From Auanema rhodensis (taxonomy: Eukaryota > Animalia > Nematoda), in contig CAXKVF010000013.1 in NCBI GenBank assembly GCA_964057225.1, forward strand, positions 1-64,000: a stretch of DNA of 64,000 nt, in the 5' to 3' direction. This document shows, piece by piece, positions 40,552-42,412 of this stretch; the first letter of the stretch is position 1, and the number at the start of each line of letters is the position of its first letter. The position numbers and the translations under genes are program-made. The notes under the pieces are model-generated. The model did no database searches. It was not told where the DNA came from and saw only the letters and a list, made by a program, of their open reading frames with translations.

Positions 40552-42412
40552 TTATAATATAACAACATCGTTTATGTTCGTACATCGACGAACTTTTTTA
40601 TATATAACAAATATTAAAAGTGTACTAACTATTCCAGGAGAAACCAAAAGTAAACAATGCAAAAATGAAGAGAATACAGTATTAAAATTGAATAAATTGC
40701 TCCAACTAAAAAATTCATTAAATTTCTCTAATTCTGCTTTTTCTTTTGCCCATTCCTCCATTGATTTCATCTGTCAATTATATAGATTAGTTAAGTTACA
40801 TATGACATTAAGTTACCTGCTCTGTCTTGAATTGCATTGATATTAATGATAATTCTTCATCGATAGATTCAAGAATAGCATCCTTAAAATATATTTAAAA
40901 TTACGAGGAATTATCTTGATTGTACTTACTCCATGTTTAAACTTTTTCTGCAAATGAGTTTCATAAACTGCTGTCCCATTAACATATATATGTTCAAACT
41001 CAATACTTTGAGTTTGACCCAATCGTAATCTAAATATAGGACTAGTTACGTTGAATCTTCTATACAAATCGTTGTATCTCTCCATGTAATTCTTAAAAAA
41101 AAATAATTACTAACAATTTGAAAAATTAATTTACCTGCTCCAGAGTTGCAATAATTGTAAAATCATGGCGCTGTCTGATCACAGTTTTCTCACGACTTAA
41201 ATTTTGGTGAATGCTAAAGTATGATTAATAAATATATATGACAGAAGTTTAACTCACATTCTACAATTTTTAAAGTTTTTCAAATCGCAAGGTATCTTTG
41301 CAGAAAACATGGCACAAGACATGAGATCTCCCTGAAAAAAACAATGTAATACTTTGTTAAACTTTGTTAGCTTTTGCATACATTTAAACGGCATTCACAC
41401 TTCGAAATGTCGAGAAAAAATTGATTTTTTATAAAAACCATTTCGGGAGTTTCTGCATAATAATACTTGTTTTCTTCTAACAAATTGCCAATATCATAAA
41501 TCTGAAATCAAATTATGAATTCATATTAGAAATATAATATGTAAATGAAAACTTACGTCAAATATTTCTCCAACTGTTAAAATTTCTTGATAAGTGACTT
41601 TCATGTCAATCATACCATTTGAATAACAGGCTATTGGTTCGACTACAATCGAACCAAGCCAATCATCCACGATTCTCTCAAACTCGGTTAAATTTAATCC
41701 GAGAAGAGTTGCCCATTCCTGTAAATAAACATTTTCAATGAAGAGGAAAATAAAATAAATTATTTATAATAATACCTTATCCATTTTTTTTGATCCAAAA
41801 AGGTAAGGATGAGCTGCATTTTTTGCAAACAAATCCTCTAGCGGATATGAAAAAATGGCTCTGATATCATTTTCAACCGAAGCTCTTTGAACATCAGCTG
41901 TTAGTTTTGAGATATTAGAATTTGCTATTTCTAATTTCTCATACAACTGGTTCAAATGCTTTGCGGTCTCACTTCGAAATTCATCCATTTGAAGTTTCTG
42001 AAAATAAAACGTTAAACAAGTTTCCAAAAATTTGAATATGTTACCAATGCCACTCCTCCGCCGATGGCAGAGCCTCCTAACAAAAGAGCAGTTCCGACTG
42101 CTAAACCAGTCAAAATTTCTCTTTTCTCCTTTTCCTTTTTCACTTCAAAACCATGTCGCTCACAAGTCATAGTAAACATTTTGTTAACATATGACGTGAG
42201 TGTATGGCTGAAGTCGTTGTCCTTTATTGAAGCAAACATGTAACTCAAGGTTACTGTTTTTTTGCTTCCAATCATACTGAAAAACAAAAAAATTTAGATA
42301 ATTTTATTTGAACTCACATTCCGTGATGTAGCCTTTGTTTGACTATCCTTTCCATGTTTTGTGCAGCTGCTACAAAAGAAAGAAACACAAAGCAAAGCAG
42401 CAACACACGCAT
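40552..42412 (-). CDS. Type I membrane glycoprotein resembling class I viral fusion (F/Env) proteins, ~10 exons, ~475 aa
   Basis: Signal peptide MRVLLLCFVFLSFVAAA; basic site KKEKEKR then Gly/Ala-rich hydrophobic EILTGLAVGTALLLGGSAIGGGVAL; heptad-like KLQMDEFRSETAKHLNQLYEKLEIANSNISKLTADV; Cys-rich CECRLNGDLMSCAMFSAKIPCDLKNFKNC; five N-glycosylation sequons; aromatic juxtamembrane segment, TM (LHCLLLVSPGIVSTLLIFVIY) and short basic tail. Confidence 0.75.

Follow-up and report, generated by a model that had tools for sequence, protein, structure and literature searches.

An intron-rich envelope-like gene with a class I fusogen layout in a 22.5-kb DNA element of a nematode 28S rRNA gene

Can a DNA element lodged in the ribosomal RNA (rRNA) genes of a nematode encode a class I-like membrane fusogen of its own? 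The question is raised by an envelope-like (env-like) gene in a 64,000-nucleotide stretch of DNA from Auanema rhodensis (assembly GCA_964057225.1, contig CAXKVF010000013.1, positions 1 to 64,000 of the forward strand; the whole analysed stretch is called the window below), which an earlier note, made from the sequence alone, had described as an intron-containing class I-fusogen-like gene inside a DNA element. Our analysis indicates that the gene is real, spliced and under constraint, and that its product is a predicted type I membrane glycoprotein of 476 residues whose parts stand in the order of F-type class I proteins. That this protein also works as a fusogen, as the order would suggest, we hold to be about an even chance.

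The gene lies on the minus strand, and its exons are as follows.

40552..42412, minus strand: env-like gene; 10 exons, 9 GT..AG introns, 476 codons plus stop
42412-42318, 42276-42045, 41997-41776, 41718-41557 and 41501-41382, minus strand: exons 1-5
41331-41258, 41213-41135, 41091-40930, 40882-40817 and 40770-40552, minus strand: exons 6-10

The frame opens with an ATG at 42412 and its stop codon ends at 40552. All nine introns (41-57 nt) are bounded by GT and AG, with acceptors that are mostly of the TTTTCAG type, and a further acceptor with this sequence, found 6 nt before the start codon, may mark a trans-splice site. A longest-path splice search run without anchors returned the same model except for one alternative intron; its score was 1227 on the real strand and 267 on the strand opposite the gene, whereas 200 dinucleotide shuffles averaged 230 and peaked at 591. 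The spliced frame is therefore far longer than chance allows, and the location and the nine introns that had been claimed for the gene proved exact.

The spliced protein (476 residues) contains all of the parts listed in the earlier note, in the order given there, as judged by hydropathy and a heptad scan.

42359..42412, minus strand: signal peptide, residues 1-18 (hydropathy)
42120..42137, minus strand: polybasic site KEKEKR, residues 79-84; predicted convertase cleavage after R84
42045..42119, minus strand: Gly/Ala-rich hydrophobic peptide of 25 residues (85-109), ending GGGVAL; candidate fusion peptide
41851..41997, minus strand: first heptad region, residues 110-158 (heptads about 111-155; heptad scan)
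41263..41399, minus strand: Cys cluster C272, C274, C283, C292 and C300; spans intron 5
40708..40962, minus strand: second heptad region, residues about 372-425 (heptad scan); spans introns 8 and 9
40555..40713, minus strand: aromatic juxtamembrane stretch, transmembrane (TM) segment (residues 436-461) and basic 15-residue tail

The N-terminal part that would precede the cleavage site comprises ∼66 residues and includes Cys70. The candidate fusion peptide has a mean Kyte-Doolittle hydropathy of 1.76 over 19 residues. For exon 3 alone, AlphaFold2 predicted one continuous 48-residue helix (exon residues 2-49), with a predicted local distance difference test score (pLDDT) of 91-98 over the first 40 residues, and this helix would start one residue past the hydrophobic peptide. 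The juxtamembrane aromatic stretch reads FFSWSNLFNF and the tail begins KKVRR. With a cleaved signal peptide at one end and, at the other, a C-terminal TM segment followed by KKVRR, residues 19-435 would lie on the outside according to the positive-inside rule. Such a placement fits the five N-x-S/T sequons and the seven Cys residues of the protein (70, 214, 272, 274, 283, 292 and 300), so the peptide at 85-109 would not be a membrane span of the mature protein; its place, as in class I precursors, would instead be at the surface of the protein or buried within it.

Evidence for constraint came from further copies of the gene, one of which lies within the window.

54617..55029, plus strand: truncated 5' duplicate of the env-like gene; 90% identical to 42114-42527 over 414 bp

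This duplicate runs from the upstream region through exon 1 and intron 1 into exon 2, where it stops just past REREKRE, and it lacks the hydrophobic peptide and every part downstream. The REREKR motif that had been ascribed to a second copy is thus present, whereas the second gene copy itself reduces to this 414-bp 5' fragment. Comparison of the full copy with the duplicate gave a ratio of nonsynonymous to synonymous substitution rates (dN/dS) of 0.41 over 86 codons. Further, DNA contigs of public sequencing runs contained the env-like gene at 100% identity together with pieces of diverged copies. One diverged copy, present in the DNA contigs of runs X8 and X5, departs from exon 3 at 29 of 159 bases. 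The tally by codon position covers 20 of these 29 differences: 14 of the 20 fall at third positions, and 14 of the 18 codons that change do so synonymously (binomial P about 9e-4, from this partial count). Near a contig end, exon 4 of this copy gave no signal, with 3 of 7 differences over 57 bases at third positions. The third-position bias in exon 3 indicates that the env-like gene is under constraint. Overall, the frame is real and constrained, and the gene is part of a small multi-copy family in the organism.

Two further observations concern the copies. Across 40300-42600, short gene pieces in the DNA contigs of three runs are several-fold deeper in words than the full-length contig (in run X3, up to 81 versus 7.9), with a peak over the upstream region and exons 1-2, which means that parts of the env-like gene are repeated elsewhere in the genome. 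In addition, a donor-like GTTAGT follows the truncated duplicate, and the splice search can join the duplicate to a downstream gene for a basic protein; the resulting chimera (54617-55750, plus strand) could, on this model, yield a secreted protein.

How closely, then, does the protein resemble known class I fusogens? F-type proteins (paramyxovirus and pneumovirus F, baculovirus and errantivirus ENV; PF00523, PF12259) start with a signal peptide and a short N-terminal subunit, which a basic cleavage motif separates from the hydrophobic peptide adjoining that motif; a heptad helix comes immediately after this peptide, then a long Cys-bearing middle, a second heptad region beside the TM segment and a short tail. 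The env-like protein shares this plan throughout, although its cleavage is a prediction, and the nearest language-model clusters of its exon 2 bear those same families. It differs in being smaller (476 residues), in yielding no exon-wise profile or sequence match, and in carrying KEKR at the cleavage site of the full copy where F-type proteins have RxK/RR (the fragment copy does have RxKR). Unlike the genes of F-type ENV proteins, it has nine introns and resides in a DNA element without gag or pol.

Two leads point in the same direction as the layout. In an ESM-Atlas search with exon 2, in which scores lower than 0.9 are to be read as leads only, the nearest clusters were Fusion_gly/TLV_coat (0.88, with 173 shared features), Fusion_gly (99%; 0.86) and TLV_coat (0.85), followed by Baculo_F (0.77) and Hemagglutinin (0.76). 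All of these are viral, and the ten best hits that carry a family all share a family or clan. For the last exon, the best sequence match in the PDB was a juxtamembrane/TM construct of HIV-1 gp160 (6sne), co-linear over 58 residues at an expectation value (E) of 0.12, which is not significant. As in gp41 of that entry, the end of the second heptad region, the aromatic stretch, the TM segment and basic residues follow one another in line; at E 0.12 the likeness is one of architecture and does not imply kinship. PDB sequence searches with exons 2, 3, 4 and 8 gave chance-level matches only, and a match of exon 8 at E 0.0012 was set aside because its target is a designed repeat protein.

Several results weigh against the class I reading. 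The homology queries were single unspliced exon translations of 54-77 residues each. A word-index search found no relatives of exon 2 among longer proteins or of exon 3 among proteins of near lengths, and phmmer, run exhaustively with exon 2 over 1.84 billion representatives, returned 0 hits. No relatives were found in viral contigs with exons 2, 3, 4 and 8 or in metagenome contigs with exon 3. Of the 10 exons, 6 had the length needed for a Pfam scan, and none of these matched any family, Fusion_gly and Baculo_F included, even with E values as high as 1 allowed; ESM-Atlas returned no related neighbour for exon 3. Both of the leads described above lie under the significance bars of their own tools, and according to the text of ESM-Atlas itself a first hit of at least 0.8 is obtained with a third of shuffled proteins. 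At the cleavage site, P4 is Lys rather than Arg, and a Glu at P1', as here, is unusual for an N-terminal fusion peptide. In addition, the element that carries the gene has no recognised capsid, polymerase or packaging gene (see below), so that the "envelope" would have nothing obvious to wrap. The exon-wise blanks, however, carry little weight, because the SET-like genes of the same element, which are clear from their motifs, reach only E 0.009-0.019 when searched by exon. The likeness to class I proteins that had been proposed consequently stands for the order of the layout, while kinship and fold are hinted at by the two sub-threshold leads and the predicted 48-residue helix. On the basis of the layout and these leads, we consider the class I reading plausible, with the chances for and against it about equal.

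If the protein is a class I fusogen, it would be expected to work as follows. A furin/kexin-type convertase would cut after KEKR84, leaving an N-terminal subunit of ∼66 residues, perhaps held by Cys70, and a membrane-anchored subunit of ∼392 residues headed by the Gly/Ala-rich hydrophobic peptide. Once triggered, this peptide would insert into the target membrane; refolding would then bring the long helix behind the peptide against the second heptad region, next to the TM segment, drawing the two membranes towards each other. The protein could serve either the spread of the element or a host function.

The 64-kb window is a tandem array of rRNA genes (rDNA) with a unit of 8,394 bp, in which the rRNA genes lie on the minus strand (Rfam and self-alignment). 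Two of the 28S genes in the window are interrupted, one by a 4,487-bp insert and the other by a 22,558-bp insert, and it is the latter that carries the env-like gene.

35159..57716, no strand assigned: 22,558-bp insertion in a 28S rRNA gene (rDNA self-alignment; Rfam large-subunit rRNA match split)
35144..35158, no strand assigned: left 15-bp target duplication AAAACTAACCTGTCT (rDNA self-alignment)
57717..57731, no strand assigned: right 15-bp target duplication AAAACTAACCTGTCT (rDNA self-alignment)
35159..35480, no strand assigned: left end; imperfect terminal inverted repeat (TIR), 10 palindrome copies at about 32-bp spacing
56430..57716, no strand assigned: right end; inverted terminal repeat, 3 exact palindrome copies and one copy with 1 mismatch

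The 28S sequence stops at 35158 and restarts at 57717 with an exact 15-bp overlap, which marks a genuine target duplication. In the 64-kb window there are 13 copies of the palindrome GTATCC-N4-GGATAC, against 0 expected by chance; 10 are clustered in the 320 bp next to the left end and 3 in the 1.3 kb next to the right end. The outermost palindromic 16-mer begins 5 bp from the boundary at each end (the right one with 1 mismatch), and the 16-mer is likely to be a protein-binding site. Duplications of 15 bp are longer than those of the classical eukaryotic TIR superfamilies; the one found here would be compatible with a cut of wide stagger or with recombination over 15 bp of identical sequence. 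The target duplication and the inverted ends bear out the claim that the gene is part of a DNA element. Introns are present in all recognisable genes of the insertion and so fit the nuclear DNA life cycle that had been proposed for it.

Repeats of the element are recorded here as separate observations. A near-perfect palindrome of 4.7 kb at 42594-47279 consists of 893-bp unique arms and a 63-bp satellite, and the satellite recurs at the left end of the element (35195-35876). A 75%-identical relative of this satellite lies in the rDNA spacer just outside the element, at 34086-34238, which hints at exchange between the element and the spacer. Six tandem units of 358 bp, 94-100% identical to one another, occupy 37901-40015, between a gene with an HExxH motif and the 3' end of the env-like gene.

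The Pfam scan covered 6 env exons and 9 other frames and then 86 of the 93 frames of at least 50 residues outside the satellites; since it was made exon by exon, split genes could escape it. In these 6 env exons and 95 other frames it detected no polymerase, capsid, packaging ATPase, DDE transposase or retroviral integrase. The suggestion that the element may move between cells or hosts accordingly found no support, with no capsid, polymerase, packaging or integrase gene among the scanned frames. The genes that were recognised besides the env-like gene are listed below.

48047..49827, plus strand: candidate tyrosine-recombinase gene; 10 exons, GT..AG introns, open over 445 codons
50393-51727 and about 51920-52850, plus strand: two tandem SET-like paralogues with GxG, NHS and post-SET Cys motifs
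37325-37861 and 54006-54530, plus strand: HExxH frame (possibly SprT-like) and its paralogue, HELIHVYENIQHP; intact

In the candidate recombinase, motif residues follow in the order R244-K278-W/R348-H383-Y392 with spacings of 34, 70, 35 and 9, and they sit in GQRPE, NKAARS, WQLRS and GHSQDTHVETY. The pattern, written after the sequence was seen, occurred in 0 of 200,000 shuffles. Against a profile of 14 bacterial recombinases the protein scored near 0, under many shuffles; hhalign gave a probability of 1%, and Pfam gave no match exon by exon. The gene is accordingly a candidate, assigned to the tyrosine recombinases by its motifs. The SET-like paralogues share about 50% amino acid identity and spread their motifs over five short exons, and Pfam SET matches their last piece only, at the E values given above, which are below the cut-off. 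The HExxH paralogues are 47% identical over 174 residues (E 3e-52); Pfam matches them to SprT-like proteins at E 0.1 only, database searches found no relatives, and a fold predicted from the two-sequence alignment is of low confidence (pLDDT 47). The element also contains genes for two basic proteins and a zinc-finger-like gene. The element probably moves as DNA, possibly by means of its own candidate tyrosine recombinase.

The other insert in the array is of a different kind. It occupies 22941-27427 in the second 28S gene, is oriented like the rRNA and has a target duplication of 15-17 bp (ATTCATGCGCGTCAC). One of its ends bears a homopolymer run, and its one frame, of 1,304 residues, contains a reverse-transcriptase domain (RVT_1, E 4e-26); the insert is an R-type non-LTR (long terminal repeat) element. 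A retro-copied origin of the 22.5-kb insert, which the similar 15-bp duplication in the reverse-transcriptase element brought into consideration, was ruled out because of the inverted-repeat ends, the arrays of binding-type sites and the fact that nothing is shared with the 3' end of the reverse-transcriptase element. Elsewhere among the frames of the window, a match to Srx, a nematode chemoreceptor family, was weak and below the Pfam cut-off (E 0.007); together with the short introns and their TTTTCAG-type acceptors, it is in line with a nematode host.

Is the 22.5-kb element one of a known kind? Insertions specific to rDNA include the R-type non-LTR elements and the DNA transposon Pokey of Daphnia. 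Like these, the element occupies a conserved 28S site, and an R-type element with a reverse transcriptase lies in another unit of the same array; unlike R-type elements and Pokey, it has no reverse transcriptase and no piggyBac-type TTAA target, is far larger and contains many genes. Elements of the Maverick/Polinton group have target duplications of 5-6 bp, and their gene set (protein-primed polymerase B, retroviral-type integrase, ATPase, protease, major and minor capsids) gave no Pfam match in the scanned frames. The relevant part of the source on nematode Mavericks describes MFUS-1 as a gB-like class III protein of 866 residues, intronless, whose gene adjoins the polymerase, integrase and capsid genes; core genes are intronless there, and introns occur only in cargo, host cargo included (10.1101/2022.07.12.499685). 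As far as that description goes, both cases place a gene for a viral-type membrane glycoprotein on a TIR-bounded DNA element in a nematode. The present gene differs from MFUS-1 in its class I layout and its nine introns, and its element differs in having no recognised Maverick core genes and a 15-bp duplication. Cryptons, as characterised in the portion of the literature used here, lack TIRs, have terminal direct repeats of 4-6 bp and are small (PMC3212892). Measured against that portrayal, the element resembles Cryptons in its intron-bearing candidate tyrosine-recombinase gene, its DNA-only nature and the target direct repeats at both ends, and it differs from them in its inverted ends, its 15-bp repeat, its 22.5-kb size and its large cargo. 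The candidate recombinase, if real, would place a recombinase-type element in a phylum in which a 2014 survey, in the part that we draw on, found no Crypton (PMC4157794).

With the gene and its element described, other explanations of the class I look can be weighed. The one that survives best is that the protein is a lineage-specific host-type membrane or secreted glycoprotein without a fusion role, be it in adhesion, in signalling or as a dibasic-cut precursor, and that its resemblance to class I proteins is a convergence of common parts; the gene would then be cargo of the element or would merely lie in DNA that the element has picked up. This would agree with the lack of sequence homology to any viral fusogen in our searches, and with an env-like gene as intron-rich as its neighbours, in an element whose other genes (SET-like, zinc-finger-like and HExxH) look cellular. 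The diverged extra copies in the same DNA runs are likewise gene-family-like, and intron-bearing host cargo is reported for nematode Mavericks in the section of the source noted above (10.1101/2022.07.12.499685). On the other hand, the full ordered set of a basic site, a Gly/Ala peptide, a 48-residue helix, second heptads, aromatics and a TM segment is specific, and two unrelated searches, one for each end of the protein, both came out nearest to viral glycoproteins of class I. We regard this alternative as a real possibility, though not one that we favour.

A second alternative is that an RNA virus or retroelement glycoprotein gene was endogenised, gained introns and was domesticated by the host, its place in the rDNA insertion being incidental. 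According to the pertinent part of PMC13524379, F-type envelope genes are widespread in invertebrate retroelements, with errantiviruses of many phyla, and constraint on the coding frame is what domestication would leave. That same part, however, reports for nematodes only gB-type envelope genes in Ty3/gypsy elements, F-type ENV not being found (PMC13524379). Moreover, no gag, pol or LTR adjoins the gene, the only reverse transcriptase of the window sits in a separate insertion 13 kb away, and nine introns within 1.43 kb would all have to have been gained. We therefore judge endogenisation to be improbable. That the locus is a decaying pseudogene or a chance open frame is hardly credible, because the frame is intact over ten exons with nine canonical introns, the splice-search score is far beyond shuffles and the diverged copy shows third-position bias, while the lack of an annotated protein in the databases searched, of the gene in any listed RNA run and of a contig on it in the one RNA run examined are blanks that we do not count as evidence.

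The class I fusogen reading of the env-like gene may thus be set in its wider context. A full-text search of the literature, covering the main articles, listed no report of mobile DNA in nematodes that carries a class I or an F-like fusogen. In its most far-reaching form, the present case would be that of a giant intron-rich element that homes to a conserved 28S site by a Crypton-like recombinase and carries its own F-like class I fusogen along with SET-domain and HExxH genes. We consider this form unlikely. Were it true, the element would represent a new kind of virus-like mobile DNA in nematodes, the number of viral fusogen classes that nematode mobile elements have captured would rise to three, after the gB-like and the phlebovirus-like, and its fusogen would be the first captured one on a recombinase-driven DNA element.

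By capturing a viral fusogen, mobile DNA is believed to gain passage across the barriers between cells and between species; such capture is known from Mavericks (gB-like) and errantiviruses (F or gB). Here, a class I-type layout occurs in an element without recognisable virion genes, and the rDNA in which this element sits is a safe harbour of many copies. Should the protein prove to fuse membranes, the range of fusogen-carrying elements would be wider, and minimal class I machinery could be studied on a small, tractable protein without known relatives; should it not, it would be a warning that unrelated proteins can reach the class I layout. In either case, an element that combines a 15-bp duplication, arrays of palindromic sites, a candidate recombinase and tandem SET-like genes within a 28S gene deserves description in its own right.

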